NCBI GenBank assembly: GCA_014360755.1
Contig: JACIWX010000006.1
Span: 27,748-91,747 of the forward strand
Length of the DNA stretch: 64,000 bases
Direction of reading: 5' to 3'
Source of the DNA: Chloroflexota bacterium
GTDB lineage: Bacteria; Chloroflexota; Anaerolineae; UBA2200
Shown here: in pieces, positions 9,521 to 59,897 of the stretch
Layout of the letters: each line of letters starts with the position of its first letter
Numbering within the stretch: the stretch's first letter is position 1
Notes under the pieces: model-generated
Told to the model about the DNA's origin: nothing
Database searches by the model: none
The model's input: the letters and a program-made list of their open reading frames with translations, nothing else
Program-made: the position numbers and the translations under genes

Positions 9521-9549
9521 TTGTGCTTCCATCGCCTATATGCTATACT
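9521..9549 (+). promoter_or_regulatory. Putative sigma70-type promoter of the helicase-nuclease-recJ operon, nearly leaderless.
   Basis: TTGTGC (9521-9526), a 17-nt spacer, then TATACT (9544-9549). The ATG at 9561 lies about 5-8 nt from the predicted transcription start. Confidence 0.3.
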
Positions 9550-9560
9550 AATGCTTGATC

Positions 9561-11699: not shown

Positions 11700-11703
11700 G
11701 AAT

Positions 11704-24044: not shown

Positions 24045-24054
24045 AAGGAGAGAC

Positions 24055-25287
24055 ATGGCAGTCGAAGTCATCTTGCCCGTTTTGGGCGAAACCATGGATG
24101 AGGGTACAATTATCAAGTGGTTTGTGGATGTAGGCCAGCCCGTCCAAAAGGGAGAGCCTCTCTATCAAATTGAAACCGATAAAGCCATATTGGATGTAGA
24201 TGCACCGGCGAGCGGAGTGTTGCGCAAAATCTTTTATCCCGCGGGGAGCAAGATCCCTGTGCTGACTGTGGTGGGGCTGATTGCTGATCCCAATGAGGAT
24301 GTCAGCGTCTACGAGCAGGGTGGCTTAGAGCCTAGTAAAACAATATCAGAAACGGTAGCGGCTGAACGGAGGCCCATGGCAGAAGGTCCTCGTAAGGGAT
24401 TGATCCCCCCGCGTGTTTTTGCTTCTCCACGAGCACGAAAATTGGCAGCAGAACACGGCATAGACCTCACGCGTTTGAAGGGCACTGGGCCTGGAGGGCG
24501 CATTGTGGAACAGGATGTGCGCGCCGCTATCGCAGCCATGGAGGCAGAGATAAAGGAACCCGCGTTGGCGCCAGCAGCAGTGGAGGCAGTGCCATCGCCA
24601 AGTGAAAGTAAGCCGTTAGCCGGGGTACGGCGCATCATTGCTGAGCGCATGAGCACTAGTGCACATACCACCGCGCCTGTGACTTTGACTACTGAGGTGG
24701 ACGCAACGAATCTGGTACAACTGCGCACTTTGTTGAAGGAGCAATTAGAACCCACCCTAGGCTTTGCTATCTCGTATACAGACATCCTTGTGGCGATTGT
24801 TGCGCGGGCTTTGCGCGAATATCCGTACATGAATGTACGCTTGGTCCAAGACGAAATCCAACAAGTGGCGCAGGTTCACATTGGGGTGGCAGTGGATACC
24901 GAGAGAGGCTTGTTAGTACCTGTGATCCGACATGCAGATCAGAAAGGGATTACAGAGATTGCGCGAACTTTGCGCGATTTGGTAGCACGGGCGCGGTCTG
25001 GGAAGAGCTTGCCAGATGACCTGAGTGGAGGCACGTTCACCATTACCAACCTGGGGATGTATGATGTTGATGCGTTCACACCGATTATCAACTTGCCAGA
25101 ATGTGCTATCCTGGGGGTAGGGCGTTTGCGTGAAGTGCCTGCGGTTTACCAGGGGCAGGTCTGTGTGCGCCAGATGATGGTGCTGAGCCTAACATTCGAT
25201 CATCGTTTGGTGGATGGTGCACCGGCAGCGCGTTTTCTGCAGCGGATAAAACAACTGGTAGAACAACCTTATCTATTATTGGCTTGA
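24055..25287 (+). CDS. Dihydrolipoamide acyltransferase E2 component.
   Basis: Lipoyl domain IETDKAILDV, a peripheral subunit-binding domain and the catalytic DHRLVDGA motif. The SD is GAAAGGAG. Confidence 0.9.
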   Translation: MAVEVILPVLGETMDEGTIIKWFVDVGQPVQKGEPLYQIETDKAILDVDAPASGVLRKIFYPAGSKIPVLTVVGLIADPNEDVSVYEQGGLEPSKTISETVAAERRPMAEGPRKGLIPPRVFASPRARKLAAEHGIDLTRLKGTGPGGRIVEQDVRAAIAAMEAEIKEPALAPAAVEAVPSPSESKPLAGVRRIIAERMSTSAHTTAPVTLTTEVDATNLVQLRTLLKEQLEPTLGFAISYTDILVAIVARALREYPYMNVRLVQDEIQQVAQVHIGVAVDTERGLLVPVIRHADQKGITEIARTLRDLVARARSGKSLPDDLSGGTFTITNLGMYDVDAFTPIINLPECAILGVGRLREVPAVYQGQVCVRQMMVLSLTFDHRLVDGAPAARFLQRIKQLVEQPYLLLA

Positions 25288-25300
25288 CAGAGGAGGGAAC

Positions 25301-26689
25301 ATGACGATTCGTTGTGACATTGCGATTGTTGGAGCTGGTCCAGGTGGATATGTAGCTGCCTTACGGGCAGCACAACTGGGAGCCAAAGTGGTGCTTGTGG
25401 AAAAGGACAAGTTGGGAGGAGTTTGCCTGAACTGGGGGTGCATCCCGACCAAGACTTTGCTGCGCACGGCAGAGGTCCTCCGTTTGACACGCGAAGCTGC
25501 TGAGTACGGGGTAATGGTGGATGGTGTCAGGTTGGATTGGGCGGCAGCGCAGAAGAGGAAAGAGGGGGTTGTCCGGCGTCTGACCGGTGGAGTCAAATTC
25601 CTTTTGGAAAGGGCTGGCGTGCAACTGCTGTTTGGAACGGCGCGTTTTGTCTCGCCAACCGCTTTGGAGGTCGTCGGAGCGAATGGCCAGGAACGGGTGG
25701 AGGCAAGGGACTATGTGATTGCTACAGGTTCACGCCCCGCTTCTCTGCCTATTCCAGGGCTCGAGGGTCCAGGTGTGTTGACTAGCGATGAGGCTTTGGC
25801 TCTGGAGGCACTACCGGAAAGCCTGCTGGTCATAGGCGCAGGGCCGATTGGGGTGGAATTCGCGACATTGTTCCGTGCTTGTGGCGTTCAGGTGACGCTG
25901 GTAGAGCTGTTGCCGCGGGTGCTACCTACACTGGACGAAGATCTGGGTGGAGAAGTAGAGCGCGCATTGAAAAAGGCAAAGGTAGCGGTATATACAGGAA
26001 GCCAAGTCTCCAAAGTGGAGAGGAGCAATGGTAAATATACCGTTACCATTCAGCAAGCGGATCAGCAGAGTGCGGTTGAGGTGGATAAGATACTCGTCGC
26101 CGTGGGACGGCGGCCGAACGTGGAAGGGCTGGGGTTGGATGTGCTTGGGGTACAGGTGGAGAAATCCGGCATTAAGGTGGATGAATTTATGCGCACCAAT
26201 GTCCCCCACATCTACGCAGTTGGTGATGTGACAGGTGGCATCTTGTTGGCGCATGTCGCCATGCATGAAGGGGTTGTGGCTGTGGAGAACGCCATGGGCT
26301 TGCAACGCGCGATGAATTATGCTGCTGTGCCCAGTTGTGTGTTTAGTTCTCCGGAAGTAGCCAGCGTGGGATTGAGTGAAGAACAGGCGCGACAACAGGG
26401 CTATGACCTTCACATAGGGAAGTTTCCCTTCCGGGGGAATGGGAAAGCGCTGGCGCAGGGCGAGTATGAAGGGTTGGTCAAGATTGTGGCGGAGAGCAAG
26501 TATGGTCAGATCCTCGGTGTGCACATCGTTGGTCCTCATGCCAGCGACCTTATTCAGGAAGGCACTCTCGCATTGACTTTGGAAGCAACATTGGATGAAA
26601 TCGAAGTTACCATCCATCCACATCCCACCTTGAGCGAAGCAGTGGCTGAGGCTGCTCTGGCAGCGAAAGGACGTGCTTTGCATAGCTAG
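25301..26689 (+). CDS. lpdA: Dihydrolipoyl dehydrogenase E3.
   Basis: GAGPGGY FAD-binding motif, the redox disulfide [13 protein letters not shown] and the C-terminal HPHPTLSE motif. Confidence 0.9.
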
Positions 26690-31866: not shown

Positions 31867-33003
31867 TTACTTCGTGTTTGCTCTTACCTGTTCGGCAATG
31901 GCATCTCCGACTTGATAGGTCAGCGCATTTCCGCCGAGGTCATACGTTCTGGGACCGTACTGCAACACTTGCTCCACAGCTTGCTCTATTGCCTGCGCAG
32001 CATCTACCTCACCGAGGTGTTCCATCATCATCGCTCCAGCAAGGACAGCAGCCATGGGATTGGCTTTCTGCTGGCCCTTATAGCGCGGCGCTGAGCCGTG
32101 GATGGGCTCGAACATCGAGAGGCCCTCCGGATTGATATTGGCGCCCGGAGCCAAGCCCATTCCTCCCTGAATGGCTGCCCCCAAGTCCGTAATAATATCC
32201 CCGAACAAGTTTGGCGCCACGACGACCTGGTAGTGCTCCGGCCTGCGGATAAACCACATAGTAACAGCATCTACCAGGTTGTACTCATATTCGATGTCAG
32301 GATAATCCCGGGCAACGCGTTCAAAGCATTCGCGCCAAAACTCGTAAATATCAGGCATGGCATTCACTTTATCTACCCCTGTAACGCGTTTCAGCCCCTT
32401 ACGGCGTGCGAGCTCGAATGCGTAGCGAATAACGCGTTCGCAACCCCGTCGGCTCAGCACTCCGATCTGATAAGCCAGCTCCTCCTGGGGCTCAACTCTC
32501 ACCGATACATCGAAATATGCGGAGTACAGCCTACGATGCATCGCACCATGTATGGTGGCTTCGCCCTCGCGAACCCGCCCGCCTACGCCACTATAGAGAT
32601 CCTCAGTGTTTTCACGCACGACATAGAAATTGATATCCGCCGCCGTCTTGTCTCTCAGCGGGGTATCCGCACCACGCAACAGTTTCACCGGGCGTAGGTT
32701 GACGTACTGGTCAAAATAGGTACGGAGCTTTAACACGATGCCGCCCAATGTCACGCGCTCTGAGACGCGAGGATCACCCAGCGCTCCCAGAAGGATAGCA
32801 TCCGTTTCCGCAATGCGACGCAGAGCCTCGTCGTCCACGACCTTGCCAGTCGCCAAATAGTGCTCCGCACCGAAGGGAAACTCGATCCACTCGCAACGAA
32901 AATCAAAGACTCGCCCCGTTGCTTCGAGAACTTTTTTCGCTTCCGCAATCACTTCTGGGCCAATGCCATCACCCGGAATCACGCTAATCGTATAATGTCG
33001 CAT
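31867..33003 (-). CDS. Isocitrate/isopropylmalate dehydrogenase-family enzyme (tartrate / D-malate dehydrogenase-like).
   Basis: N-terminal ISVIPGDGIGPEV and the central NLFGDIITDL motif. Confidence 0.85.
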   Translation of the reverse strand: MRHYTISVIPGDGIGPEVIAEAKKVLEATGRVFDFRCEWIEFPFGAEHYLATGKVVDDEALRRIAETDAILLGALGDPRVSERVTLGGIVLKLRTYFDQYVNLRPVKLLRGADTPLRDKTAADINFYVVRENTEDLYSGVGGRVREGEATIHGAMHRRLYSAYFDVSVRVEPQEELAYQIGVLSRRGCERVIRYAFELARRKGLKRVTGVDKVNAMPDIYEFWRECFERVARDYPDIEYEYNLVDAVTMWFIRRPEHYQVVVAPNLFGDIITDLGAAIQGGMGLAPGANINPEGLSMFEPIHGSAPRYKGQQKANPMAAVLAGAMMMEHLGEVDAAQAIEQAVEQVLQYGPRTYDLGGNALTYQVGDAIAEQVRANTK

Positions 33004-33011
33004 ACCGCCGC

Positions 33012-34274
33012 TTACTCCTTATCAGTTTTCTGATAACGCTGTGCAGCACGCCGCAGTGCCTCTACCACGGGCAGTTCTTGCCCGGACAGAAAGCGCACCA
33101 TGCCGCCTCCCGAGGTACAGACGTACCCCATGCGCTCCAATACACCGAACTTTGCCCCAGCAGCGACACTATCTCCGCCACCGATTACTGAGTATCCAGG
33201 TGCATCGGCAATCGCTTTCCATAACTTTTCAGTCCCTACTGCGCTCAAAGGATCCTCATAGATGCCGGCTGGCCCGTTCACGAAAATAGTGGCGGCTTGC
33301 TGTATCACTGTGATATAACGAGCGATAGTCTGTTGCCCGATATCCACAATAAGGCGCTCTGTAGGCAAATCCTCCAATCCAATTTCTTTTCGCCCTTGAT
33401 CATCTATCGCCACATCTATGGGGTAGAGGATCTTGTCCCCATAGCGCTGGAGGAGCTGTTGTGCCCTCGCGACAAAGGGAGTCAGCCCTTTTTCATGGAT
33501 GATACGCTCCGTCGGCTCTCCCAGCGCATACCCTTTAGCCAGAAGCATCACTTCGCCATTCAGTCCCGAGGTCAAGACATAATCCGCGGTGCCCTCACTC
33601 AGAACCTGTTCCATCATGCTAAAGGCATCAGCAATGCGCGCCCCACCCAAGACATACACGCAAGGATGCTTCGGGTTCTCCTTCACGCGCACAAGGGCGC
33701 CAAATTCCTCGATAAAGAGCCGCCCGCCTGCCGAAGGCAACACCTCCGCAAAGCCAACTAACGATGGTGTATAACGATGAGCAGCAGCAAACGCTTCGCA
33801 CACGTAATAGTCTGCCAGCGGAGCCAAGTTGCGCACCAACCAGGTCTTGGCAAGTTGCTCCGGGGTCAATTTCACAAATTGAACGAAGGTGGATACTTCT
33901 TCAGTCAGATAACGAACATTGTTCAAGAGCAGTAAATCCCCTGCTCGTAGTTCTTTCACTCGCTGCAAAGCCGCTGGCCCTACGATGTCGTCAATGAATG
34001 CCACAGGCCGGCCGAGCAATTCCGCAAGGCGCTGGGCATGAATCTCCAAGGGAATGAGATTGTGATAATCCTCGATATCCCCTTGATGAGCAAGCATCAC
34101 TACGCGTGCCCCTGCTTCCGACAATTCCTTAATCGTGGGCAGGCTTTTGCGAATGCGGTTGTCATTAGCCAAACGACCCGTCTTGTGGTCAATAGGAGAA
34201 TTGATGTCCACGCGCAGGATAACGGTCTTGTCATGGAAATCAAAATCATCTAATGTGAGGATCCCAGCTTCCAC
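33012..34274 (-). CDS. pgk: Phosphoglycerate kinase, archaeal-type sequence.
   Basis: LTLDDFDFHDKTVILRVDINSPID...ARVVMLAHQG resembles archaeal PGK N-termini rather than the bacterial VRVDFNVP type. 420 aa. Confidence 0.85.
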   Translation of the reverse strand: MEAGILTLDDFDFHDKTVILRVDINSPIDHKTGRLANDNRIRKSLPTIKELSEAGARVVMLAHQGDIEDYHNLIPLEIHAQRLAELLGRPVAFIDDIVGPAALQRVKELRAGDLLLLNNVRYLTEEVSTFVQFVKLTPEQLAKTWLVRNLAPLADYYVCEAFAAAHRYTPSLVGFAEVLPSAGGRLFIEEFGALVRVKENPKHPCVYVLGGARIADAFSMMEQVLSEGTADYVLTSGLNGEVMLLAKGYALGEPTERIIHEKGLTPFVARAQQLLQRYGDKILYPIDVAIDDQGRKEIGLEDLPTERLIVDIGQQTIARYITVIQQAATIFVNGPAGIYEDPLSAVGTEKLWKAIADAPGYSVIGGGDSVAAGAKFGVLERMGYVCTSGGGMVRFLSGQELPVVEALRRAAQRYQKTDKE

Positions 34275-34295
34275 AACACTCCTCCCAAGAAGAAC

Positions 34296-35324
34296 TTAGC
34301 GTCCCGGTTTGAGCCCTAGGTATTTGTTCGTTAGTCCCACAGCCTCCAAACGGTCGGTCTGCATGACCATGCAAGCCCGCACGCCATCAATGGTTTCTGG
34401 AATGGTTACTGCCTCTTGAGGGATGTTGATAGCAAACATCACATCATTACCGGAAAAACCAATACATTCTTCCCACACCGCAATTTCGTACATATCGCTG
34501 CGCTTGTTGCCCAAGTGCCGCGCATATTGGAAAAGGGCTGTATTCGAAGTAAAGCCATCAGCGAGACGGACAACGCGGATGCGCGGATGTTCCCGGAACG
34601 TTTCCAGCAAAGCCTCTTTGCTCACGGTTTTCTTCGGTGTGGCTACGATATTGATGATATGTCCATGGGTAACCGGGGTGTGCACCAAAAGGCCAGTGGC
34701 TTGTACATGGGGCATAATATGCATCAGGTCTACTGCCTGGTGGCTCGGTACTGCATCTGGCCGAAGCAAGTCTACATAGCCACGGTGAGTATCCCCGGGA
34801 TCAGCCACGCGGCGGATAATGGTAATGGCTATCTTCTCCACACCCACCATACGATCCAAAGCATCTACGGCGCGAATCAGGCCGGTGGTATTGCAGGAAG
34901 TAAGTTTCAAAAACCTCTGGCCGATGCCTTTTTCATAGTTTGCATATCCATGGAAGAAGACATCGGCAACCTCATCTTTTTCGCCACCTTGGAAAATCGC
35001 CTTTACTCCGTGCTTGAGGTATAGTTCCTTATTCTTGATGCCTATTCCGCCTGGTGCCGCATCCAGGACGACGTCTACCTGATCCAGCAACTCTTCGAAA
35101 GTGCCCGAGACAGGGATCCCGAGGGCATCAAACTCGGGCTTGCGTTTGGCATCCACGAGGAAAAGGCGGTAGGGCATACCGCTCTCGTAAAGAGCGCGAA
35201 TAGGCAGCGTGGGAGCGACATCGGCGACTCCTACCAATTCCATATCTTCCTGTCGCGCCACGCCATCCGCTAGACGCGTACCAATCGTGCCATAACCTGC
35301 TACTGCAACTCTGACCTTACTCAT
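34296..35324 (-). CDS. gap: Type II (archaeal-type) glyceraldehyde-3-phosphate dehydrogenase.
   Basis: VAVAGYGTIGTRLADGV, IFQGGEK and the active-site SCNTTGL match archaeal GAPDH. GGAGG SD with 8-nt spacing. Confidence 0.85.
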   Translation of the reverse strand: MSKVRVAVAGYGTIGTRLADGVARQEDMELVGVADVAPTLPIRALYESGMPYRLFLVDAKRKPEFDALGIPVSGTFEELLDQVDVVLDAAPGGIGIKNKELYLKHGVKAIFQGGEKDEVADVFFHGYANYEKGIGQRFLKLTSCNTTGLIRAVDALDRMVGVEKIAITIIRRVADPGDTHRGYVDLLRPDAVPSHQAVDLMHIMPHVQATGLLVHTPVTHGHIINIVATPKKTVSKEALLETFREHPRIRVVRLADGFTSNTALFQYARHLGNKRSDMYEIAVWEECIGFSGNDVMFAINIPQEAVTIPETIDGVRACMVMQTDRLEAVGLTNKYLGLKPGR

Positions 35325-35384: not shown

Positions 35385-36200
35385 CTACAATGAGCGGAAA
35401 TAGCCGATAGCCAACTCCGCAGCAGTCTGGCTATCAGGCCAAGGAAGGATTTCGGCACTGATATAGCTTGCATAGCTTATTTTGCGTAATGCTGTCACTA
35501 CCTCTTGGAAATTGATGTGACCCTGCCCTGGTGCGCGACGATTGCTATCCACCAGATGTACATAACCAAGACGTTTCCCCGCCAGTTCCAGCGCTTTGGG
35601 CAGGGACACTTCTTCGATATTCATGTGGAAAGTATCTGCCAACACAACCACGTTGTCCAGACCCACTTCATCTGCAAATGCCAGTGCTTCAGCAACAGTG
35701 TTCAGAAAATTGGTCTCGTAGCGGTTGATTGGTTCAATCGCCACACGCACCCCAACGGACTGGGCATATTCGGCGTAGCTACGGACTGCCTCCAGAGCCC
35801 ACTTGCGCTGTTCAGCCTGCACAGCAGGTTCCTTGCTGAGCACCCCTCGCACCCCACCAATGATCAGAAATCCCTGCCAAGGAGCCAGAAAATCGAGGAG
35901 GCGTTTCATCCTTTCGCGCAGCCTTGCGTGCACCGCGGGGTCAGTGTTAGCCAGGGACAAGCCATCTGTGTAGTAGGATTGCCCCGTAGCCACGGCTGAT
36001 AGTGCCAAACCTTTTTGGCGTAAGGCGCTGGCAATATGCCCCAAGAGGTCTTTCGACGGATCGAGCAAGCTCAGTTCTACCGCATCATATCCCAACTTAG
36101 CCGCTTGCTCTACGCCCAATTCCCAATTACCGGCAAAAAGCAATGGGGCAAAATTGGCTGGCAGTGGGGAAATGGCCATGCTGGTTTTGAACATCCTCAT
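35385..36200 (-). CDS. Sugar-phosphate isomerase/epimerase (xylose-isomerase-like TIM barrel).
   Basis: AP-endonuclease-2 / xylose-isomerase-like fold pattern (GYDAVELS...HLVDSN). Its ATG overlaps the upstream stop as ATGA. Confidence 0.8.
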   Translation of the reverse strand: MRMFKTSMAISPLPANFAPLLFAGNWELGVEQAAKLGYDAVELSLLDPSKDLLGHIASALRQKGLALSAVATGQSYYTDGLSLANTDPAVHARLRERMKRLLDFLAPWQGFLIIGGVRGVLSKEPAVQAEQRKWALEAVRSYAEYAQSVGVRVAIEPINRYETNFLNTVAEALAFADEVGLDNVVVLADTFHMNIEEVSLPKALELAGKRLGYVHLVDSNRRAPGQGHINFQEVVTALRKISYASYISAEILPWPDSQTAAELAIGYFRSL

Positions 36201-37156
36201 CTCCTCAGCAAACGAGCTGCCTTCTCCAAGACATAATGGGCTGCTTCCGCGATATGCTGCGGCGACATACCGTACTTGTGCAATAGTTCTGCATTTGTGC
36301 CACACTCACCATAGCAATCGCAGAGCCCAACGCGTATCATGGAGGTAGGCGCATGCTCTACGAGGACTTCTGCTACCGCGCTTCCCAAGCCGCCATATAT
36401 GTTGTGATTTTCTGCGGTAACAATGCCTCTGGTCTCCTTAGCTGCCTGTATCACCGCTTCTATATCAATAGGCTTGATCGTGGGCATATGGAGCACGCGG
36501 GTGCTGATTCCTTCTCTTCCAAGAAGCTGCGCGGCCTCCACACACTGCGAGGTCATCATGCCACTGCCAATGAGGGTTACATCTGAGCCTTCTCGCACTT
36601 TCACCGCTCTTCCCAATTTGAACTGATAACCCTCAGGCGATACACGAGGCCAGACATCCCGCGTTGCGCGCAGATAGACTGGCCCAGGATAAGCGACAAT
36701 CGCCCGCACCGCCTGCTCCATCTCGATGTCATCCGCGGGGTCTACCACAGCCATATGAGGGATTGCACGCATGATCCCCACATCTTCAACCGCTTGGTGT
36801 GTAGCACCATTATTGCCGCTGACAATACCGCTGTAAGCTCCGATGATTTTCACATTCAGCCGGCAATGGGCAACAGAGATAGCCACTTGATCACAGGCAC
36901 GCCGTGAAGCAAAGACACCAAAAGTGCTGACAAAGGGGATTTTCCCCATCAAAGCCATGCCTGCAGCCACTCCCATCATATTCTGTTCGGCAACTCCCAT
37001 TTGGAAAAAGCGCTCTGGAAATTCTTGAGCAAAGTATACCACGCGAGTAGAACTGGCCAAATCCGCATCCAACACGACAATGTTAGGATTTTGCCGTGCC
37101 AATTCTACCAGCGTGCGACCTAACGCTTCTCGTGCTGATTCTACCATGACTGACAC
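36197..37156 (-). CDS. Transketolase, C-terminal (pyrimidine-binding) subunit of a split enzyme.
   Basis: The 319-aa ORF aligns to the Pyr and C-terminal domains of transketolase (GVAEQNMMGVAAGMAL...). Confidence 0.9.
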   Translation of the reverse strand: MSVMVESAREALGRTLVELARQNPNIVVLDADLASSTRVVYFAQEFPERFFQMGVAEQNMMGVAAGMALMGKIPFVSTFGVFASRRACDQVAISVAHCRLNVKIIGAYSGIVSGNNGATHQAVEDVGIMRAIPHMAVVDPADDIEMEQAVRAIVAYPGPVYLRATRDVWPRVSPEGYQFKLGRAVKVREGSDVTLIGSGMMTSQCVEAAQLLGREGISTRVLHMPTIKPIDIEAVIQAAKETRGIVTAENHNIYGGLGSAVAEVLVEHAPTSMIRVGLCDCYGECGTNAELLHKYGMSPQHIAEAAHYVLEKAARLLRR

Positions 37157-37159
37157 TCC

Positions 37160-37999
37160 TTACTCTTGAGAACATCCCAATTCAGCGAGCGCTTGGGCTA
37201 GTTGTTCCTGATTGGGAGCCTTGCCATGCCATGCTGATTGGCCTTCCATGTACGAGACTCCCTTGCCTTTGACTGTATGAGCGATAACAATGTGGGGCTG
37301 GCCTTTCACTTCTTTTATTGTTTCCAGGGTAGTAATGAGCTGCCGCATATCGTGTCCGTTGACCTCTGCTACTGCCCAATTGAAACTGCGCCACTTGTCC
37401 GCAATGGGCGCTATCTCCATCACTTCTCTCAGGGGACCCATCAACTGCACGCCGTTGTAGTCCAAGATAACAGTGAGGTTATCTACCTTATAATGCGCAG
37501 CAGCTTCAGCGGCTTCCCAAATTTGCCCTTCTTGGTTTTCGCCATCGCCGATGAGACAATAGACATGAATCCCCTTGCCATCCAGACGCGCTGCCAATGC
37601 CATGCCCAAGGCTACCGACAAGCCTTGCCCCAGGGCACCTGTAGAGACTTCTACTCCCGGTACCAGATGCATATCTGGGTGCACTTGCAAACGGCTGTCA
37701 ATGCGGCCAAATGTCTTGAGCCAGTCGATAGGGAAAAAGCCGCGCTCTGCTAGTGTAGCGTAGAGGCCTGCCGCACCATGGCCCTTTGACAGTACAAAAC
37801 GATCCCTTTCTTCCCACTGCGGGCGCTGAGGGTCTATCTTCATAATATGAAAATATAATGCCGTGAGAATATCCGCTTCCGATAGCGAGCCACCTGGGTG
37901 GCCCACTCCTGCCTCGGAAATGGTACGCACAACGTGACAGCGGATCCTACGTGCGGTCTCTTCCAAATAACGGATTCGTTCTTCTGTAAGCAAAGTCAT
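37160..37999 (-). CDS. Transketolase, N-terminal (TPP-binding) subunit of a split enzyme.
   Basis: SEAGVGHPGGSLS, GDGENQEG and ILDYNGVQ are transketolase TPP-domain motifs. The gene lies 4 nt upstream of the C-terminal subunit. Confidence 0.9.
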   Translation of the reverse strand: MTLLTEERIRYLEETARRIRCHVVRTISEAGVGHPGGSLSEADILTALYFHIMKIDPQRPQWEERDRFVLSKGHGAAGLYATLAERGFFPIDWLKTFGRIDSRLQVHPDMHLVPGVEVSTGALGQGLSVALGMALAARLDGKGIHVYCLIGDGENQEGQIWEAAEAAAHYKVDNLTVILDYNGVQLMGPLREVMEIAPIADKWRSFNWAVAEVNGHDMRQLITTLETIKEVKGQPHIVIAHTVKGKGVSYMEGQSAWHGKAPNQEQLAQALAELGCSQE

Positions 38000-38084
38000 T
38001 GTGATACTTTTCCCCTTCCAGAATTGAGGGCATTGGGGGTTTCCCCCAATGCCCTCATATGCCATTGAAGGTTACCCGAGAAAA

Positions 38085-39116
38085 CTACAGGCCAAGACGG
38101 CTGGCGTAGTCCATGATATTGCTCTTGTCCACCACCGTCGCCTGCGTCACGATCCGCTCCGGCACCGGCTTCCCATTGATGTAGTCAATCAGCGCCAAGA
38201 TCGCATCACCAGCCTGCTTCCCTGGCCGCTGATCACACGATACCACCATCCGCCCTTCGTAAATCGCCTTCAGCGCATCGTTGTTGGCATCAAACCCACT
38301 CACCAACGTCTTGCTCAATCGCCCAGCCGCCTCCAACGCCTCGATCGCACCCAACGCCATCTCGTCGTTGCACGCCAATACCGCATCAATCTCCGGATAC
38401 GTCTGCAGCAAGTTCTCCATCACCTGCATGCCCTTCGCACGCTGGAAGTCAGCCGTCTGCGATGCCAATACCTGGATGCCTGGATACTTCGCCAATACGT
38501 CATCTATCGCCTTCTTGCGGTCTATCGCCGTCTGCGAACCTGTGGCTCCCTCCAGGATCACCACCTTCCCCTTGCCACCCAGCTTCTGCACCATGTACTC
38601 CGCTACCAACGTCATCGCTTCATAGTTCTCTATGGCCGAGAAGGTGATCACCTTGCCACCAAAAGCCTTCGTGTTCGCCGTGGCTACGGGAATGCCCGCC
38701 TGATTCGCTCGCTCAATCACCGGCACAATGCCCGCCGAATCCACCGGCACCAAGACTATGCCATCTACTTTCCGCGCAATCAGGTCATCCACCAACCGCG
38801 TCTGCTCTTCCAGGTTGTTCGGCTTCGTCGGCGCTAAGTAAATCAACTCAATGCCATGCTCCTCAGCAACCTGCTTGGCACCCGCATACATCATATCCCA
38901 GAAGGGGTTGTTCAGCGCCTTCGTGACCAGAGCAAAGGTCAGCTTCTTTGGCGCTGCCGTGGGCGCAGGCGGAGCTGTCGGCTTCGCCGCTTCCGTCGGC
39001 TTGGGTGTTGGTGTAGGCACAGGCGTGGGCGTGGCTGCTGGTTGACAGGCTGACAAGCCAATGCCTACCGCCAGCAATATTGCGATCAGCAAGTAACTAC
39101 GGTTGTTCTTGTACAT
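38085..39116 (-). CDS. Sugar ABC transporter substrate-binding lipoprotein (ribose/monosaccharide-binding family).
   Basis: Lipobox LSAC, a Pro/Thr-rich linker (TPTPVPTPTPKPTEAAKPTAPPAPTAAPKK), then a periplasmic binding protein type I fold. Confidence 0.85.
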   Translation of the reverse strand: MYKNNRSYLLIAILLAVGIGLSACQPAATPTPVPTPTPKPTEAAKPTAPPAPTAAPKKLTFALVTKALNNPFWDMMYAGAKQVAEEHGIELIYLAPTKPNNLEEQTRLVDDLIARKVDGIVLVPVDSAGIVPVIERANQAGIPVATANTKAFGGKVITFSAIENYEAMTLVAEYMVQKLGGKGKVVILEGATGSQTAIDRKKAIDDVLAKYPGIQVLASQTADFQRAKGMQVMENLLQTYPEIDAVLACNDEMALGAIEALEAAGRLSKTLVSGFDANNDALKAIYEGRMVVSCDQRPGKQAGDAILALIDYINGKPVPERIVTQATVVDKSNIMDYASRLGL

Positions 39117-39233
39117 ATTTCCCTTTCCTCCTCCTTTTCAAATTACAAATTTGGGCACAGAAACTCGAAAAGTGAACCGCTTGGTTTATGGATTCTCACC
39201 CCCTTTCGAAGAATTTTGCGGCTATCTATCGCT

Positions 39234-40172
39234 TCATGCCGTCTTCTTCTTGATCCACATATCCAGCCAAACTGCCAACACAACCACTAAGCCAATGGCA
39301 AATTGCTGCCAAAGTGAGGAAATCCGCAACAGATTCATGGCATTCACCAGAACTGTCATGATCAACGTGCCGATAATCGTGCCTCCGATTCCACCACGTC
39401 CCCCCGTCATGCTCGTGCCACCCATCACGGGGCTTGCAATAGCAGGGAGCAGGAAGGGAGCCCCAATATCCTGGTCTACAGCATTGAGCCGCGCCGTCAA
39501 GATAATCCCACCTAATGCAGCTAACAACCCGCTGAGCATATAGGTGTAAATCAAAATACGATCCACGCGCAAGCCTGAAGCTTTGGCAGCATAGGGATTC
39601 GCCCCTACCGCGTAGATGCTCTTGCCCAGCGTGGTGTACTTCAAGAAGAGATAAACCACCAGTGCTACAGCGACCATGATCCATATCGGCACAGGAATGC
39701 CCAACAAGATTCCGCGCCCGATATAGCGGAATGCATTGGGGAAGCCAAAATAGGGAAAAGCACCCATGATCGCAAAAGCAAGGCCTCGACCTACCCAGAG
39801 CATGCCATATGTGGCAATGGCGGAAGGCAATTTGACTTTGGCAACCAGAATGCCGCTGACCAAACCACAGAGCAATCCGGAACCCAACGCGGATACAATC
39901 GCAATTGACCAATGCAGCTTCGTCTGGGTAAGCACATAACCTGCAATGATGCTCGCCAGCGTCACAACTGAACCTATGGAAAGGTCTATGCCACCTGTCA
40001 GCAGCACGATCGTCATGCCTGCCGAGATAATGATTTGAGGCGAAGCCTGGCGCACGATATTGATGAGGTTGCTGATTTTCAGAAAGTTCGGGTTGAGCAC
40101 AGCGACAACCATGCTCAACAGCACCAGCGCTAGCAATCGTGAAAACCTAAGCAAAAAAGATTTTAATGTCAT
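39234..40172 (-). CDS. Sugar ABC transporter permease (RbsC/AraH-like).
   Basis: 312-aa polytopic protein with branched-chain / ribose-type permease topology. Confidence 0.85.
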   Translation of the reverse strand: MTLKSFLLRFSRLLALVLLSMVVAVLNPNFLKISNLINIVRQASPQIIISAGMTIVLLTGGIDLSIGSVVTLASIIAGYVLTQTKLHWSIAIVSALGSGLLCGLVSGILVAKVKLPSAIATYGMLWVGRGLAFAIMGAFPYFGFPNAFRYIGRGILLGIPVPIWIMVAVALVVYLFLKYTTLGKSIYAVGANPYAAKASGLRVDRILIYTYMLSGLLAALGGIILTARLNAVDQDIGAPFLLPAIASPVMGGTSMTGGRGGIGGTIIGTLIMTVLVNAMNLLRISSLWQQFAIGLVVVLAVWLDMWIKKKTA

Positions 40173-40200
40173 TTCCTGCCATCTCCTCCATGATCTTGCG

Positions 40201-41157
40201 CTATTTCTGCGCTCCGCCTTCTACCAGGACAGACAAGACAATGGCGCCGATCAGTACGGGGCCAATAATAGCCAGCTGGATGTAGGTCGGTATGCCCATC
40301 ACATTCAGCCCATTTCTTAGGATGAGGATAAACAAGACGCCAATCACCGTTCCAATAGCTGTGCCACGCCCCGCGGCGAAACTCCCGCCCAAAACAACGG
40401 CAGAAAAAGCTTCGAACTCCATGCCTAAACCGACGGTTGGCTGAGCACACATATTGCGCCCTGTGATCACGATAGCTGCCAGGCCTGCCATGAGGCCGGC
40501 ATAGACATACACTAGAGTCTTATACCACCAGGCTGGCTTGCCAGTGAGCACGAGCGCTTGTTCGTTGCCACCCAAGGCATAGACATAGACGCCAAAAGGT
40601 GTAAAGTTCAGCAAGGTGAAAGAGCATAGAAAAGCCAGGACAGATAACCACATGGGCACTGGCAAATGCAGAAATGTGCCGTTGCCCAGGTACCCTATGG
40701 ACGCAGGCAATCCCCAAATCACATTCCCGTTGTTCATTCCCAGAGAAATCCCTGCCGCGATGCCCTGTGTGCCCAGAGTAGCAATAAAAGAAGGGATGTC
40801 CATCTTGGTAACAAAGAAGCCATTCAACAAACCACACAAGCCCCCCACGATGAGGCTGAGCAGCAAGGCTACCGGGATAGGCAGCTTGGCATAAGCCAGA
40901 GCCCAAGCCATCACCATACCCGCCAGGGTCATCACGGCACCGACCGAAAGCTCAATGCCACCAGTGATCTTGACTACGATGACGCCCATGCACAGGATCA
41001 TCAAGATGGAACCTTGCGTCAGGAGATTGACAGCATTCTTCAGGGTGAAGAAAGCTGGGGCAAAGCGAGCAAAGAACAGGATCATGCCCAGCAATACCCA
41101 CACTACTGTTGGGACTTGACGAAGGAGTGTTTTCCGTGAACCTGGACTCATTTGCAT
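40201..41157 (-). CDS. Sugar ABC transporter permease (second subunit).
   Basis: 318-aa polytopic paralogue of the adjacent permease. Confidence 0.85.
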   Translation of the reverse strand: MQMSPGSRKTLLRQVPTVVWVLLGMILFFARFAPAFFTLKNAVNLLTQGSILMILCMGVIVVKITGGIELSVGAVMTLAGMVMAWALAYAKLPIPVALLLSLIVGGLCGLLNGFFVTKMDIPSFIATLGTQGIAAGISLGMNNGNVIWGLPASIGYLGNGTFLHLPVPMWLSVLAFLCSFTLLNFTPFGVYVYALGGNEQALVLTGKPAWWYKTLVYVYAGLMAGLAAIVITGRNMCAQPTVGLGMEFEAFSAVVLGGSFAAGRGTAIGTVIGVLFILILRNGLNVMGIPTYIQLAIIGPVLIGAIVLSVLVEGGAQK

Positions 41158-42668
41158 GCTTTCGCTCCCATAGCACAGCGGATAATCTCTTCGGCATCTG
41201 TACCGCGTGGGAACTCGCCCACGATAGAGCCCTCATGCATCACATAAATGCGGTCGCTCATCCCCAAAATTTCTGGCAACTCCGAGGAGATCATCAAAAT
41301 CGCGTTTCCCTCGTTAGCCAGTTGATCCATAAAAGCGTGGATTTCCGCTTTAGCGCCCACATCAATGCCACGAGTTGGCTCATCAAAGATAAAGATTTTA
41401 GGCCCAGTACAAAGCCACTTAGCCACCACTACTTTCTGCTGGTTGCCTCCGCTCAGATACTGTACCTCACGAGCCAAGTCAGGTGGAGAGACTCGCAGTT
41501 GCTTTACGTATTTCCCTGCTTCCAGTTGCTCCTTCTTGGGGTTCAAAATGCCACGAGGGAACAACTGCTTCAAGCTCGCCATCACGACGTTGGTTTGCAG
41601 CGGGAGGATGGGAAAAATCCCATCGCGTTTGCGATCCTCGGGCAACAATCCGATACCCATCTCCACGGCGCGCGGTGGATCAATATGGTCTACTTTCTTC
41701 CCCATAACCTCGATGGTGCCGGCAGTGCGAGGATCCAAGCCAAAGATAGCGCGTGCCGTTTCCGTGCGACCAGAACCAACCAAGCCAGCCAGGCCAACGA
41801 TCTCTCCAAAACGCACTTCGAAAGAGACATCGCGCAATTTGTCATGGGTACAAAGGCCTTGAACGCGCAAGGCCACCTCACCTGGCTGGCAATAGCGGCG
41901 TGGGAAGAGGTCTTTGATCTCCCGACCTACCATCATCTTGATCACTTCATCCGCATTGGTCTCCGCAACTCGCCGCGTGCCAATGCGCTGACCATCGCGC
42001 AAGACGGTTACCCGATCTCCGATAATGAACAACTCTTCCAAGCGATGGGAGATGTAGATGATGCCCACGCCGCGGGCTTTTAGCCGACGGATGGTTTCGA
42101 AAAGCTGCTCGATCTCACGAACGGTGAGGGCAGAGGTTGGCTCATCCAGCACCAGGATGCGCGCTTCCTGGGAAAGGGCTTTGGCGATTTCCACCATCTG
42201 TTGCTGGGCGACTCCCAGCTCCATCACCGGAAGGCGCGTGTCTATGGGTACGCCCATGGACTCCATCAGGCTGTGAGCTTCCTGATGCATGACTCGCTTG
42301 TCCAGAAAGAACCCAGCGCGCGTTTTCTCACGCCCCAAAAAGATGTTCTCGGCAACGTTACGGTACGGGACCAGCGTAAATTCCTGGTATACCATAGCAA
42401 TGCCATGTGCCTTCGCTAGGGCCGGATTCCAATGTGCCTGTACCTCGCCATCAATGACGATTTCCCCGGCATCCCGTTCGTAGGCACCAGCGAGAATCTT
42501 CATCAGGGTAGACTTTCCAGCGCCATTCTCACCGACCAGTACATGCACCTCACCCGGGTACAAGTCCAGGTCTACCTTATCCAGGGCCTGAACCCCTGGG
42601 AATGCTTTGCTGATGCCTCGCATTTCCAGCAGCGGTCTATCCTTTGCCAGCACAGATCCTCCTACCAT
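41148..42668 (-). CDS. Sugar ABC transporter ATP-binding protein with duplicated ABC domains (RbsA-like).
   Basis: Two Walker A motifs (GENGAGKST; first domain) and two LSGG signatures in 506 aa. Confidence 0.9.
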   Translation of the reverse strand: MVGGSVLAKDRPLLEMRGISKAFPGVQALDKVDLDLYPGEVHVLVGENGAGKSTLMKILAGAYERDAGEIVIDGEVQAHWNPALAKAHGIAMVYQEFTLVPYRNVAENIFLGREKTRAGFFLDKRVMHQEAHSLMESMGVPIDTRLPVMELGVAQQQMVEIAKALSQEARILVLDEPTSALTVREIEQLFETIRRLKARGVGIIYISHRLEELFIIGDRVTVLRDGQRIGTRRVAETNADEVIKMMVGREIKDLFPRRYCQPGEVALRVQGLCTHDKLRDVSFEVRFGEIVGLAGLVGSGRTETARAIFGLDPRTAGTIEVMGKKVDHIDPPRAVEMGIGLLPEDRKRDGIFPILPLQTNVVMASLKQLFPRGILNPKKEQLEAGKYVKQLRVSPPDLAREVQYLSGGNQQKVVVAKWLCTGPKIFIFDEPTRGIDVGAKAEIHAFMDQLANEGNAILMISSELPEILGMSDRIYVMHEGSIVGEFPRGTDAEEIIRCAMGAKACK

Positions 42669-42711: not shown

Positions 42712-43869
42712 CTACATTTGGAAGACCACTTTGAGCGCATCCTCTTCAAACGACTTGTCAATCGCTTGCTGCGCCTGATCCAACGTAAAGCGGTGCGTGA
42801 TCAGCTTTTCGAAGGGAAATTCGTGGCGATGGCGGTACATCATTTCCATAGCAACGTAGTAGCCATCGTGGGGGTGGTTGGTATTGCCAAAGAGCAGGAC
42901 ATTCTTGGCAGCGATATGGCGGTGCACATTCAGGGTTACGGTGTTGCCGGTGTCCACAAAGTTGCCCGTTTCCAAATATGTACCGCCACGGCGTAACATC
43001 TCCAAACCTACTTTGAGCACCTCAGGACGCCCCACGTTCTCCACGACTACGTCTGCGCCACGTCCTTCCGTCTCATCGCGAATGATTTGTACCAATTCTT
43101 TGTCAGAGAGTCCTTTGACATTGATGCCCATGTCGGCGCCAAACTGCTTGGACAACTCTAGTTTCATATCGCTCTCATCGAGGGCGATGATCTTGCCCGC
43201 GCCGAGCAGGCGTGCCTTCGCCACCATCATCATACCCACTGCACCCACGCCTTGGACCACCACCGTATCCCCAAAATGGAAGCCTTTGCCTGCGTACGCG
43301 GCATATTCCTTCGCGCGGTCCAGCAGCGCGGTTACGACAAAGAGTTCGGTGAGGCAAGCGTATTCCACGGACAGGTATTCCGGCACTTTGTATACCCACG
43401 CTTTGGGGGGCAAATACATGTACTCAGCCCAACCACCGACAATATACGGAAATTGGTCAGAGCGATAGGTCATGCCTATGCCCTGGTGTTTCGCGCAGTA
43501 TGGATAACCGTGCACGTGGCGGCAATACCAGCATTCGCCGCAGATCACGTTGGGGCAGTTCGTGACTCGATCGCCGACTTTTAAATCCTTGCCGCTGTAC
43601 TCGATCTCCGAACCTTTGCCGTTCATCTCCACCACAATGCCGGCGTTCTCGTGGCCATGCACGCAGGGAAACACCATGTCCTGCTCTGCTTCTGTACCCC
43701 CGTAAAGGGTCAATTCTCCCTTATAGGCATGCTTGTCTGTGCCACAAATGCCGGACATTTCCATCTTGACAATGACTGCTCCTGGCTCCAGGTGATCAGG
43801 GTAGGGCAGTTCCTGCACCTCGATTTTCCCAGGTGCTACCATCACGGCTGCTTTTACTTTCTCTGGCAT
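42712..43869 (-). CDS. Zn-dependent medium-chain alcohol/polyol dehydrogenase (threonine/sorbitol dehydrogenase family).
   Basis: Catalytic Zn motif GHENAG, structural Zn site CGECWYCRHVHGYPYC, and the Rossmann motif VQGVGAVG. Confidence 0.85.
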   Translation of the reverse strand: MPEKVKAAVMVAPGKIEVQELPYPDHLEPGAVIVKMEMSGICGTDKHAYKGELTLYGGTEAEQDMVFPCVHGHENAGIVVEMNGKGSEIEYSGKDLKVGDRVTNCPNVICGECWYCRHVHGYPYCAKHQGIGMTYRSDQFPYIVGGWAEYMYLPPKAWVYKVPEYLSVEYACLTELFVVTALLDRAKEYAAYAGKGFHFGDTVVVQGVGAVGMMMVAKARLLGAGKIIALDESDMKLELSKQFGADMGINVKGLSDKELVQIIRDETEGRGADVVVENVGRPEVLKVGLEMLRRGGTYLETGNFVDTGNTVTLNVHRHIAAKNVLLFGNTNHPHDGYYVAMEMMYRHRHEFPFEKLITHRFTLDQAQQAIDKSFEEDALKVVFQM

Positions 43870-43926: not shown

Positions 43927-44856
43927 TCATGGCGGGTAGGCAACTGTGTATAGGTGTTTGCCACCCTTTGTGGGCCCCTTCAGCAGTGCCTCAATTTCTT
44001 CCGGAGAGCGCTGGGTCAGTTTCTCAGCGGGCGGCAGCACCCCGGCCGGGTAACGTGCCATGATGTCATTGATCAACTTCTCCAGGTAGTCCAAGATGGC
44101 ATAAAGCCCCGGCTTTGCCTTGTCCATGTCTGCCAGCGTGGCACAGCCTACCACGCCTTCGGGCGTAGCAATGACCTCGATCGTGGAAGCGCCGACATGC
44201 TGCCAGAAGGGGATGGGGAGATCGTACGCTGAGCCGGACATGTCAATGTGCCCAGGGGGCATGAGGCTTTCACCCTTGGTGTCTACGGCGTCCTCCATCT
44301 TGATCATTTCAGGGAACAAGGCTAGCGAGTAGGAAGTTTCGCATTCATCGGCATGGATAAAAGGAGTTTCAAAAGGCCCACCGTGTTTCTTGTCGCGGAT
44401 GTGCGGCTTGATGGTGAACCACCAGTTCACGTTGATCAGCAATGCCGGCACCTGATACTTTTTCGCCCACTGATGCATGGCTACGGGAATCGCATAATCC
44501 TGGCCATGACCATTCAGCAGGATCTGCTTGCGGAAACCGGTATTCCAAAGGCCGGCGATGACCGCACGCAAGTAGGCAATAAAAGTCTCTTCGGGGACGA
44601 CAATGGTACCCGGCATCCCTAAGTGGTGGAAAGGATGGGAGCCGTACCAAAGAGGTTGTGCTACCGTACAACCTGTCTTTTGCGCGACCAGTTCCGCCAT
44701 ACGGGTAACAAGAAAGGTATCTTCGCCTGAGCAGGCATGGGGTCCATGGTTTTCCGTGCTGCCAATGGGCACGATGATCAAATCATTTTTCTTCAGCCGC
44801 TCTTCGATCTCCTTGCCGGTCATATTCTGCAGGTAGATACCGGTTGCCCGATCCAT
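43927..44856 (-). CDS. Creatininase-family amidohydrolase.
   Basis: IVPIGSTENHGPH...and the HADECE motif are typical of the creatinine amidohydrolase family. Confidence 0.8.
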   Translation of the reverse strand: MDRATGIYLQNMTGKEIEERLKKNDLIIVPIGSTENHGPHACSGEDTFLVTRMAELVAQKTGCTVAQPLWYGSHPFHHLGMPGTIVVPEETFIAYLRAVIAGLWNTGFRKQILLNGHGQDYAIPVAMHQWAKKYQVPALLINVNWWFTIKPHIRDKKHGGPFETPFIHADECETSYSLALFPEMIKMEDAVDTKGESLMPPGHIDMSGSAYDLPIPFWQHVGASTIEVIATPEGVVGCATLADMDKAKPGLYAILDYLEKLINDIMARYPAGVLPPAEKLTQRSPEEIEALLKGPTKGGKHLYTVAYPP

Positions 44857-44936
44857 GTGCCCACCTTCTGGTGGGAGCTTCCATTTTTCCATTGCTTCGA
44901 TGCTCCTTTCTTATCCTTTTGTGTTGATGCCATTAT

Positions 44937-45623: not shown

Positions 45624-45656
45624 GTGATATATTATATACTATATATAGTATATCAC
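45624..45656. promoter_or_regulatory. Palindromic operator in the divergent GntR / ptsI promoter region.
   Basis: GTGATATAttaTATACTATATATAGTATAtatCAC contains a perfect 18-bp palindrome, TATACTATATATAGTATA, inside imperfect GTGATATA..TATATCAC arms. It lies 13-45 nt upstream of the GntR start codon. Confidence 0.5.
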
Positions 45657-45829
45657 ATACTCCCAAATTTGTCAAATTTTGGAGAACGCCAGGTAAGTTC
45701 TGTCTTGGGGCAAATATTATGAGGTAACGATCTGGCTGAATACTGGCAAGTTAACCAAAGCCAAATTTGGCATCACAGAGAACTTGGGCCATAATATGTG
45801 AAAATTCTATGTTCTATCGGAGTGAAGAC

Positions 45830-50691: not shown

Positions 50692-50707
50692 TGTTTGGTG
50701 TGGAGCG

Positions 50708-59849: not shown

Positions 59850-59897
59850 GAACGGCGCATGCAAGGCAACAAGCCATCTGCGAGGCGCAGGGAGAGC

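Follow-up and report, generated by a model that had tools for sequence, protein, structure and literature searches.

We have analysed a pair of adjacent genes on the minus strand of a 64,000-nucleotide stretch of an Anaerolineae genome (Chloroflexota bacterium, contig JACIWX010000006.1, positions 27,748 to 91,747; the window hereafter), which are publicly annotated as a glyceraldehyde-3-phosphate dehydrogenase (GAPDH) of type II and a phosphoglycerate kinase (PGK). Their products, called here GAP2 (34296-35324) and the PGK-like protein (33012-34274), probably constitute a conserved module of two genes at the end of the kinase-free catabolism of inositol-derived or other sugar acids, which would proceed via D-malate semialdehyde. 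With considerably greater confidence, the pair can be regarded as an accessory catabolic module linked to cleavage by thiamine diphosphate (ThDP)-dependent enzymes and to D-malate. For the specific substrates proposed below, which are deduced from sequence and gene context, we put the chances at slightly better than even, and it seems an evenly balanced proposition that in at least six phyla a neofunctionalised pair turns the D-malate semialdehyde released by transketolase (TK), via D-malyl-1-phosphate, into D-malate and ATP.

Family membership, active sites and distribution of the pair

The initial annotation, which was made from the sequence alone, had pointed to archaeal-type GAPDH and PGK genes lying side by side, and both open reading frames (ORFs) are indeed found as described. 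GAP2 comprises 342 aa from the chosen ATG, as do nearly all of its close homologs, and the gene of the 420-aa PGK-like protein starts 21 bp downstream. GAP2 scores above both type II equivalog cutoffs (NF003251, 393.8 bits, cutoff 185; TIGR01546, 308.7 bits, cutoff 232.9), its matches in the PDB are four archaeal GAPDH structures only, at 36-40% identity, and the type II hallmarks named earlier, i.e. VRVAVAGYGTIG, IFQGGEK and SCNTTGL, are all present. The PGK-like protein matches the Pfam PGK family over the full-length domain (PF00162, 341.8 bits, residues 8-399). Its N-terminus, LTLDDFDF..KTVILRVDINSP, had been read as following the archaeal rather than the bacterial pattern, and its archaeal affinity is borne out by its best solved relative, the Pyrococcus horikoshii PGK (2CUN, 311 bits, every bacterial or eukaryotic PGK scoring at most 203 bits), as well as by an insertion at residues ~128-146 that is common to Thermococcales PGKs and missing from bacterial PGKs; an HQG motif is also common to the PGK-like protein and archaeal PGK. 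By these sequence criteria both proteins are of archaeal type, GAP2 being a predicted type II phosphorylating aldehyde dehydrogenase of a bacterial clade termed HQ, and the PGK-like protein a putative archaeal-type acyl-phosphate:ADP phosphotransferase that lacks the Arg65/Lys phosphate ligand.

The pair has its families, folds and catalytic residues, together with the PGK insertion, in common with the archaeal GAPDH (Methanothermus fervidus 1CF2, P. horikoshii 2CZC) and PGK (2CUN), and presumably carries out the same two-step chemistry, in which a thioester is converted to an acyl phosphate and then yields ATP. Unlike the archaeal pair, however, it occurs in bacterial hosts and in a catabolic context instead of central metabolism; GAP2 is at most 44% identical to its archaeal counterparts and carries the changes His194Gln and Lys33Asp, and the Arg65/Lys position of the PGK-like protein has become Asp, Ser or Gly.

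The GAPDH active-site map and the role of Lys33 (M. fervidus numbering) have been taken from a published description (PMC12041015). In all 83 distinct GAP2 sequences, the Ser-Cys-Asn-Thr-Thr stretch (Ser139-Cys140-Asn141-Thr142), the catalytic His219 (H-x-H) and the Ps-site residues Arg167 and Arg168 are invariant, and the Arg-Arg site is compatible with phosphate and carboxylate alike. At the Pi site His193 is kept, whereas His194, a His in all four archaeal structures, is replaced by Gln in 83 of 83 sequences, the motif reading P[S/N]HQA[V/L]D as opposed to the archaeal PSHHGPD. The NADP-linked Lys33 position is Asp without exception (83 of 83), and NAD+ is the cofactor predicted from the sequence. 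A difference between clades in the catalytic-His region of the MAFFT alignment proved to be a 2-residue alignment shift, H-x-H being present in both groups, and these columns have been discarded.

In human PGK, Arg38, His62, Arg65, Arg122 and Arg170 form the basic patch that binds 3-phosphoglycerate (3-PG), Arg65 being the ligand of its phosphate. All of these except Arg65 have invariant equivalents in the PGK-like family. The Arg65 position is never basic (Asp in 48, Ser in 17 and Gly in 9 of 74 sequences), and the invariant Pro that follows it has been lost too. Among the controls, 118 of 120 archaeal PGKs, which were collected with the P. horikoshii PGK and are Thermococcales only, have Lys or Arg here, and two bacterial PGKs have Arg. 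Judged from these alignments, the coordinated family-wide switches would fit a changed substrate, with a smaller and less charged distal group, and a changed cofactor.

A scan of one genome per species has shown that relatives of GAP2 are encoded in at least 558 genomes from at least six phyla. The closest homologs, with 76-98% identity, fall into at least 120 clusters labelled Anaerolineae, Chloroflexota or Thermoflexales, and a metagenome-assembled genome (MAG) labelled Anaerolineae bacterium (L008) contains a GAPDH match of 99%. Among the best 80 relatives, which are 68-99% identical, are proteins of Anaerolineae, Dehalococcoidales, Thermoleophilia, Acidimicrobiia, Atribacterota, Spirochaetota and Planctomycetota, as well as of Acetobacterium woodii, A. 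wieringae and A. bakii, Clostridium magnum, Dorea, Christensenella, Oscillospiraceae and Lachnospiraceae. The gap-pgk pair itself recurs at ~70% GAPDH identity in Bacillota, Actinomycetota, Dehalococcoidales, Atribacterota, Spirochaetota and Planctomycetota. When 1.84 billion cluster representatives were searched exhaustively, the distribution of identity was bimodal: two full-length proteins were found at 61-64% (469-489 bits), and all remaining representatives lie at or below 44% and 275 bits. The GAP2 clade has the signature VAD..LTSCNTT..P[S/N]HQA[V/L]D..THGHII..IPQE, and the outgroup signature stays classical (K..VVSCNTT..PSHHGPD..TLMHxH..VHQE), the nearest outgroups with the classical motif being archaeal GAPDHs of Hodarchaeota and Aenigmarchaeota. 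From these sequence comparisons GAP2 is a discrete and highly conserved bacterial subfamily, archaeal-type by ancestry and patchy in its distribution. It is plausible that the gap-pgk pair arose long ago in archaea, since both proteins are of archaeal type and the nearest GAPDH outgroups are archaeal.

An inter-domain transfer of the pair had been one of the two explanations offered in the initial annotation. Of this, the old archaeal origin stands as plausible, but a transfer confined to the present genome or its lineage is not supported. That archaeal enzymes are the closest relatives of both proteins among solved structures could speak for a recent transfer of the operon from an archaeon to this bacterium; nevertheless, the identity to archaeal GAPDHs in the search of representatives does not exceed 44%, and hundreds of bacterial genomes carry the pair with 68-99% GAPDH identity. 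Furthermore, the GC content at the locus (0.52-0.54) is the same as that of its surroundings, and both close homologs and the synteny (TK, TIM barrel, GAP2, PGK) are common to other Anaerolineae. We have therefore rejected a recent transfer, which we consider highly improbable. According to the initial annotation, a place of both proteins in a deep bacterial clade with type II forms throughout would speak against its reading; this applies in so far as the clade is discrete and bacterial, but its spread across phyla is patchy and accessory-looking. The surroundings are bacterial, as had been noted, with tmRNA (50280-50693), UvrA (1547 bits), PTS enzyme I, HflX, RecJ and TrmFO, and a SmpB-like ORF at 49753-50208 that was judged by eye only.

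A GAP2 with 69% identity and the HQ signature was also seen in a Candidatus Bathyarchaeia MAG (L076, 3471-5800), where the strand opposite to it carries the PGK-like gene; this reflects either a transfer from bacteria to archaea or a binning error. Further bacterial type II GAPDH subfamilies exist outside GAP2 (P0132/P0273 from Caldinitratiruptor microaerophilus, P0141 from Dehalococcoidia, P0146 and P0200), and in some of them the motif takes the intermediate form PSHQGPD and the Lys33 position is acidic; judging by their sequences, bacterial type II GAPDH diversity exceeds "a handful of genomes".

Gene neighbourhoods and the proposed route to D-malate

The gene context of GAP2 has been compared in 83 loci, free of duplicates and drawn from at least six phyla, which were searched with the proteins of the window cluster and with proteins of C. 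magnum and A. wieringae. A same-strand PGK-like gene follows GAP2 in 70 of the 73 loci with room for one. Partner genes were counted wherever one flank extended for at least 6 kb (73 loci): a gene for handling D-malate is present in 47 of them (LarA-type racemase in 36, malic enzyme in 20, a gene resembling tartrate dehydrogenase (TDH) in 8), a ThDP-dependent ketol-cleaving enzyme in 32 (split TK in 22, an acetoin/pyruvate-dehydrogenase-like E1 in 11), and IolD, IolE or IolG in 8-12.

The C. magnum cluster encodes an ABC importer, malic enzyme, GAP2, PGK, the N- and C-terminal subunits of TK, an IolB-like protein, IolD, IolE, IolG and a racemase, with scores well above the cutoffs for IolD (982 against 715 bits), IolE (430 against 290), IolG (483 against 355) and the LarAH6 malate racemase (585 against 500); IolC, IolJ and IolA as well as a sugar kinase are absent from it according to curated models. 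In A. wieringae the cluster is composed of E1alpha, E1beta, E2, E3, GAP2, PGK, malic enzyme and malate racemase (575 bits, cutoff 500), and in Dorea of GAP2, PGK, malate racemase (583 bits, cutoff 500), malic enzyme, TK, IolO-like and IolM-like proteins and IolN. IolN and IolO-like genes occur together with malate racemase and malic enzyme in a Spirochaetaceae MAG as well. LarAH6 is also the best match, with 505-518 bits (cutoff 500), of the racemases that adjoin GAP2-PGK in those Anaerolineae loci which are closest to the window. An actinobacterial locus (L017) encodes a TDH-like protein, GAP2, PGK, a cupin, TK, an SDR, an MBL-fold hydrolase and an MFS transporter, and no sugar kinase is found in this cluster. 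Two clusters (L029 and L072) are made up entirely of IolD/E/G/B-like genes, GAP2, PGK, racemase and TK, every internal ORF being assigned, and in the remaining clusters the unassigned ORFs are regulators or transporters, except for a weak PfkB kinase (L083) and a PFK (L063, at the edge of the locus). In the annotated clusters there are no genes for a sugar kinase, an aldolase or an aldehyde dehydrogenase of the ALDH family.

Several of these neighbourhoods have features of their own. A conserved nine-gene array is found in Acetobacterium spp. (L060, L043, L056, L058 and L085; ~4280-14780), which encodes a 3-hydroxyacyl-CoA/carnitine-dehydrogenase-like protein, E1alpha, E1beta, E2, E3, GAP2, PGK, malic enzyme and malate racemase, an acetoin-dehydrogenase-like complex thus standing in place of TK. 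In another Anaerolineae genome (L001/L002, 4683-16020), two Amidohydro_2 proteins and a cupin precede TK, TIM barrel, GAP2 and PGK, and downstream come a molybdopterin oxidoreductase of two subunits and a malate racemase of the LarAH6 type, which makes a third kind of upstream module for GAP2-PGK. In one Anaerolineae lineage (L006/L007, 10001-14198) an AFOR-family gene comes directly after GAP2-PGK, with no TK or racemase in reach. In L017 a phage-integrase-family gene (4544-5605) lies ~3 kb upstream of the TDH-like/GAP2/PGK/TK cluster, a hint at mobility of the module.

In the window, the immediate operon context, which the initial annotation had left unused, consists of 13 co-directional minus-strand genes running from 45611 down to 31867 with short gaps or overlaps, and GAP2-PGK lies near its end. 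Directly upstream of GAP2 is a xylose-isomerase-like TIM-barrel protein (35385-36194; Pfam AP_endonuc_2), which is IolO-like, scoring 265 bits on the model for 5-keto-L-gluconate epimerase (NF041099), below the cutoff of 300, and is a candidate keto-sugar-acid epimerase, isomerase or dehydratase. It is preceded by a split TK (36197-38065) with an N-terminal ThDP subunit (37160-38065) and a Pyr/C-terminal subunit (36197-37156), in which the catalytic His, Glu and Arg residues are kept. The last gene of the cluster (31867-33003) encodes a beta-decarboxylating dehydrogenase of the TDH/DmlA type, which scores below the equivalog-level cutoffs (TIGR02089, 368 bits, cutoff 470; PRK03437, 390 bits, cutoff 393) and has as its best PDB match the tartrate dehydrogenase/decarboxylase 3FLK (261 bits). 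The search with family models has found no sugar kinase, aldolase or ALDH-family aldehyde dehydrogenase in the window cluster, and no tpi, pgm or eno gene was found in the 64 kb window, where the survey outside the cluster covered ORFs of at least 180 aa.

The route that we propose would begin with an imported cyclitol or sugar, which would be converted to an unphosphorylated 2-ketose acid; in the relatives with IolG, IolE, IolD and IolB-like genes, this acid would be 2-deoxy-5-keto-D-gluconate. The IolG/IolE/IolD/IolB steps end at this compound, and the classical continuation requires IolC (with ATP), IolJ and IolA. Read as a ketose, 2-deoxy-5-keto-D-gluconate is 3S,4R (D-threo), which is the configuration required of TK donors. 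The split TK, or in some genomes the acetoin-dehydrogenase-like E1/E2/E3, would then take its C2 ketol unit to an acceptor and leave OHC-CH(OH)-CH2-COO-, i.e. D-malate semialdehyde, which is D-glyceraldehyde-3-phosphate (GAP) with a carboxylate replacing the phosphate ester. As the clusters of the window, C. magnum and L017 encode no sugar kinase, the product of TK cannot be GAP in them. GAP2 is taken as the oxidiser of the aldehyde because it is the sole aldehyde-oxidising enzyme encoded in these clusters, and its product should be an acyl phosphate because only then is a PGK-like kinase required. Hence GAP2 would convert D-malate semialdehyde, NAD+ and inorganic phosphate to D-malyl-1-phosphate, from which the PGK-like protein would transfer the phosphate to ADP, giving D-malate and ATP. 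Since the stereochemistry of the Iol steps predicts a D-configured aldehyde and thus D-malate, either a racemase with an L-malic enzyme or a D-specific enzyme of the DmlA/TDH type would be needed, and the clusters do carry one or the other. D-malate would be converted to pyruvate and CO2 by the DmlA/TDH-like enzyme in the window and in Actinomycetota, whereas most other genomes would use L-malic enzyme together with the nickel-dependent malate racemase. The direction of these reactions and their ATP yield are what we infer from this arrangement: the route would spend no ATP and gain one by substrate-level phosphorylation, which fits fermenters and acetogens.

Alternative substrates and related pathways

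A number of observations weigh against this proposal. The substrates of the GAP2 clade are assigned from gene context, about a quarter of the loci have no D-malate or ThDP gene in reach, and GAP2 occurs without an adjacent PGK in L004 and L077. A weak PfkB-family kinase lies between IolE and GAP2 in L083. Both Ps-site Arg residues and all but one of the five 3-PG ligands are kept, and from this conservation the enzymes may still be active on GAP and 1,3-bisphosphoglycerate (1,3-BPG); the archaeal PGK control described above is, moreover, a narrow one. In L006, where gap and pgk are followed by the AFOR gene, a His_Phos_1 (phosphoglycerate-mutase-like) protein and enolase are encoded 5-7 kb away, and this locus looks glycolytic. 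A dual or housekeeping role of the pair in Anaerolineae is possible.

The last points lead to the ordinary function, according to which a genuine archaeal-type GAPDH and PGK act on GAP, 1,3-BPG and 3-PG, as an Anaerolineae housekeeping pair or as an auxiliary one that would provide extra triose-phosphate flux or supply GAP as an acceptor for TK. This is what the public annotation as type II GAPDH and PGK implies, and the strong matches to GAPDH-II and PGK models, the conserved catalytic residues, Arg-Arg site and 3-PG ligands, the Anaerolineae locus with AFOR, mutase-like gene and enolase, and the family's high frequency and strong conservation in Anaerolineae are all in keeping with it. The linkage to tpi, pgm and eno, however, is missing in the window, the spread of the pair is patchy and accessory-like and extends to clostridia, and one related clostridium has two active type I GAPDHs beside an inactive type II enzyme. 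The clusters contain no other oxidiser for the aldehyde released by TK, yet contain enzymes specific for D-malate; a kinase for phosphorylated intermediates is absent, and the phosphate ligand of the PGK-like protein and the Pi-site His of GAP2 have been lost family-wide. On balance we consider the ordinary function unlikely. The second explanation in the initial annotation, a replacement of the glycolytic core, is not supported, as the pair sits in a sugar-acid/inositol cluster and its partners are TK or E1 and D-malate enzymes, not tpi, pgm and eno.

In the only published assay of a bacterial type II enzyme, Koendjbiharie et al. have reported that the type II GAPDH of Pseudoclostridium thermosuccinogenes shows no GAP activity with NAD+ or NADP+, while two active type I enzymes coexist with it, and that functional evidence for bacterial type II GAPDHs is lacking (PMC6543838). 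The finding would bear on GAP2 if that enzyme belonged to the same clade, and a negative assay can also reflect poor expression.

The upstream chemistry of the window itself raises a further difficulty. By analogy with the Thermotoga route, IolN and the IolM-like and IolO-like proteins of the window would give 5-keto-L-gluconate or D-tagaturonate. Neither is a 2-deoxy compound, and both would lack the configuration of classical TK donors, which leaves the way to D-malate semialdehyde in the window unexplained; either the TIM-barrel enzyme or the alcohol dehydrogenase acts differently, or tartrate semialdehyde is produced. In the latter case, the TK of IolN-type clusters would cut a fully hydroxylated 5-keto-hexonate (5-keto-L-gluconate, tagaturonate or an epimer) to tartrate semialdehyde, which the pair would turn into tartrate and ATP, and the TDH-like protein would be a true tartrate dehydrogenase/decarboxylase. 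The known product of IolN is 5-keto-L-gluconate, the IolN of the window passes its equivalog cutoff, and the best relatives of the TDH-like enzyme are tartrate dehydrogenases; malate racemases have also been found to epimerise tartrate (PMC11770544). On the other hand, Dorea and the Spirochaetaceae MAG join IolN and IolO-like genes to malate racemase and malic enzyme, which points to malate, and GAP2 is ~70% identical across all types of cluster, which suggests a single substrate. Stereochemical reasoning also indicates that the aldehyde from 5-keto-L-gluconate or tagaturonate would be L at the alpha carbon, opposite to GAP. We regard tartrate in the IolN-type clusters as rather improbable, less so than a recent transfer though a shade more than the ordinary function. 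A conversion of tartrate semialdehyde to tartrate in every cluster has been downgraded, since C. magnum, Acetobacterium and Dorea have malate racemase and malic enzyme, and IolG/E/D/B imply a 2-deoxy intermediate. Another anionic hydroxy-aldehyde such as erythrose-4-phosphate is conceivable, although for this compound, too, the kinase is absent.

Parts of the proposed D-malate route have counterparts in known systems. In the L-carnitine pathway of Acinetobacter baumannii, malic semialdehyde is converted to D-malate and then to pyruvate and CO2, the last step by a proven DmlA-type enzyme (PMC11353897). The intermediates are the same as those proposed here, and that beta-decarboxylating dehydrogenase resembles the last gene of the window cluster; the A. 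baumannii pathway, however, obtains the aldehyde from an oxygenase and uses a non-phosphorylating ALDH with no gain of ATP, whereas the route through GAP2 and the PGK-like protein would conserve ATP and suit anaerobes. The upper genes are in common with the inositol routes of B. subtilis (IolG/E/D/B/C/J/A) and T. maritima (IolG/M/N/O), but TK or an E1 complex, GAP2, the PGK-like protein and D-malate enzymes replace the IolC, IolJ and IolA of the lower B. subtilis pathway. Split TKs that cut C2 from an unusual anionic ketose are present in other catabolic operons, i.e. those of the sulfo-TK pathway of sulfoquinovose and of D-apiose degradation (apulose-4-phosphate transketolase); neither pathway is known to use a GAPDH/PGK pair on the aldehyde product. 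A synthetic malyl-phosphate pathway with an engineered malate kinase and malate semialdehyde dehydrogenase has been described as non-natural (PMC5481828). It resembles our proposal in having a kinase/dehydrogenase pair for the acyl phosphate and semialdehyde of malate, and differs in that its enzymes come from aspartate kinase and ASA dehydrogenase, work in the reductive direction and act on C4, the other carboxyl. For LarAH6/Mar2, malate racemase activity is proven (PMC7583248; PMC11770544), and its discoverers have called its in-vivo role an open question (PMC7583248). Transketolase, malate and GAPDH are all absent from a 2025 review of inositol metabolism in microbes, and no description of an inositol or malate-semialdehyde route through TK, GAPDH and PGK was found in the searchable literature, which misses most subscription-journal papers, so that prior publication is possible.

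If the proposal is true, thousands of database entries for bacterial "type II GAPDH" and "phosphoglycerate kinase" would have to be reread; for Anaerolineae, acetogens and gut clostridia, metabolic reconstructions would currently be counting GAP2 and the PGK-like protein as glycolysis. The pair would represent a new ATP-yielding, kinase-free lower branch of inositol and sugar-acid fermentation in anaerobes, would give bacterial type II GAPDHs a first function, and would explain the published absence of GAP activity in one of them. It would also provide a physiological source of D-malate for the nickel-pincer malate racemases, and thus explain their wide occurrence. From an evolutionary point of view, a two-enzyme unit would have moved between domains and been jointly retargeted from a phosphate ester to its carboxylate analogue, and natural catalysts would become available for malyl-phosphate and malate-semialdehyde chemistry, which has so far only been engineered.

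Other genes of the cluster and the window

The first gene of the cluster encodes a GntR/FCD-family transcriptional regulator (44937-45611; GntR-family models, all below equivalog cutoffs). It is followed by IolN, a 3-dehydro-scyllo-inosose (cyclic beta-diketone) hydrolase (43927-44892; NF041098, full length, 545 bits, cutoff 245), and by a Zn-dependent, IolM-like alcohol dehydrogenase (42712-43869), which matches at family level only (NF041097, 157 bits, below 450) and is a candidate inosose or polyol dehydrogenase. Of the Thermotoga-type set only IolN reaches the equivalog level, and IolG was not found in the window cluster. The four genes of a sugar ABC importer come next (38085-42668; ribose/xylose/allose-type models, all below equivalog cutoffs), i.e. 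an ATPase (41148-42668), two permeases (40201-41157 and 39234-40172) and an RbsB-like binding protein (38085-39116). Directly upstream of the GntR gene, on the same strand, there is a match to the sigma-70-like promoter consensus (TTGACA-17-TATACT with a TG extension, 11/12; 45647-45675), which is a consensus match only; promoter and terminator scans of the region gave no more matches than in shuffled sequence.

The C-terminal subunit of the window TK and those of 22 other cluster-linked split TKs have been compared with E. coli TktA. At the positions of His461 and Asp469, which we take to contact the distal end of the substrate and the C2-OH, these 23 proteins have Asp/Tyr and Asn/Thr (Tyr and Asn in the window), and the catalytic residues are conserved in all of them; as the comparison has no split-TK controls, it has been left out of the evidence.

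Divergent from the GntR gene is PTS enzyme I (45767-47557, plus strand, 637 bits), and a lone enzyme I in an Anaerolineae genome may be regulatory. A 2-oxoacid/acetoin-dehydrogenase-type complex is encoded on the plus strand at 21951-26689, with E1alpha and E1beta fused in a 697-aa ORF followed by E2 and E3. It lies ~8 kb from GAP2-PGK on the opposite strand, and its non-fused counterpart is directly upstream of GAP2-PGK in other genomes; a link between the fused-E1 complex of the window and GAP2-PGK is uncertain. Three ORFs of 702, 437 and 714 aa (2215-4323, minus strand; 6189-7502 and 9555-11699, plus strand) have no NCBIfam match at E<=1e-25. Towards the end of the window, YqeB (59859-61618, plus strand; 371 bits, cutoff 220), a protein of selenium-dependent molybdenum-cofactor maturation, adjoins an XdhB-like FAD subunit of the xanthine-dehydrogenase family, which suggests a selenium-dependent molybdenum hydroxylase locus running towards the window end.

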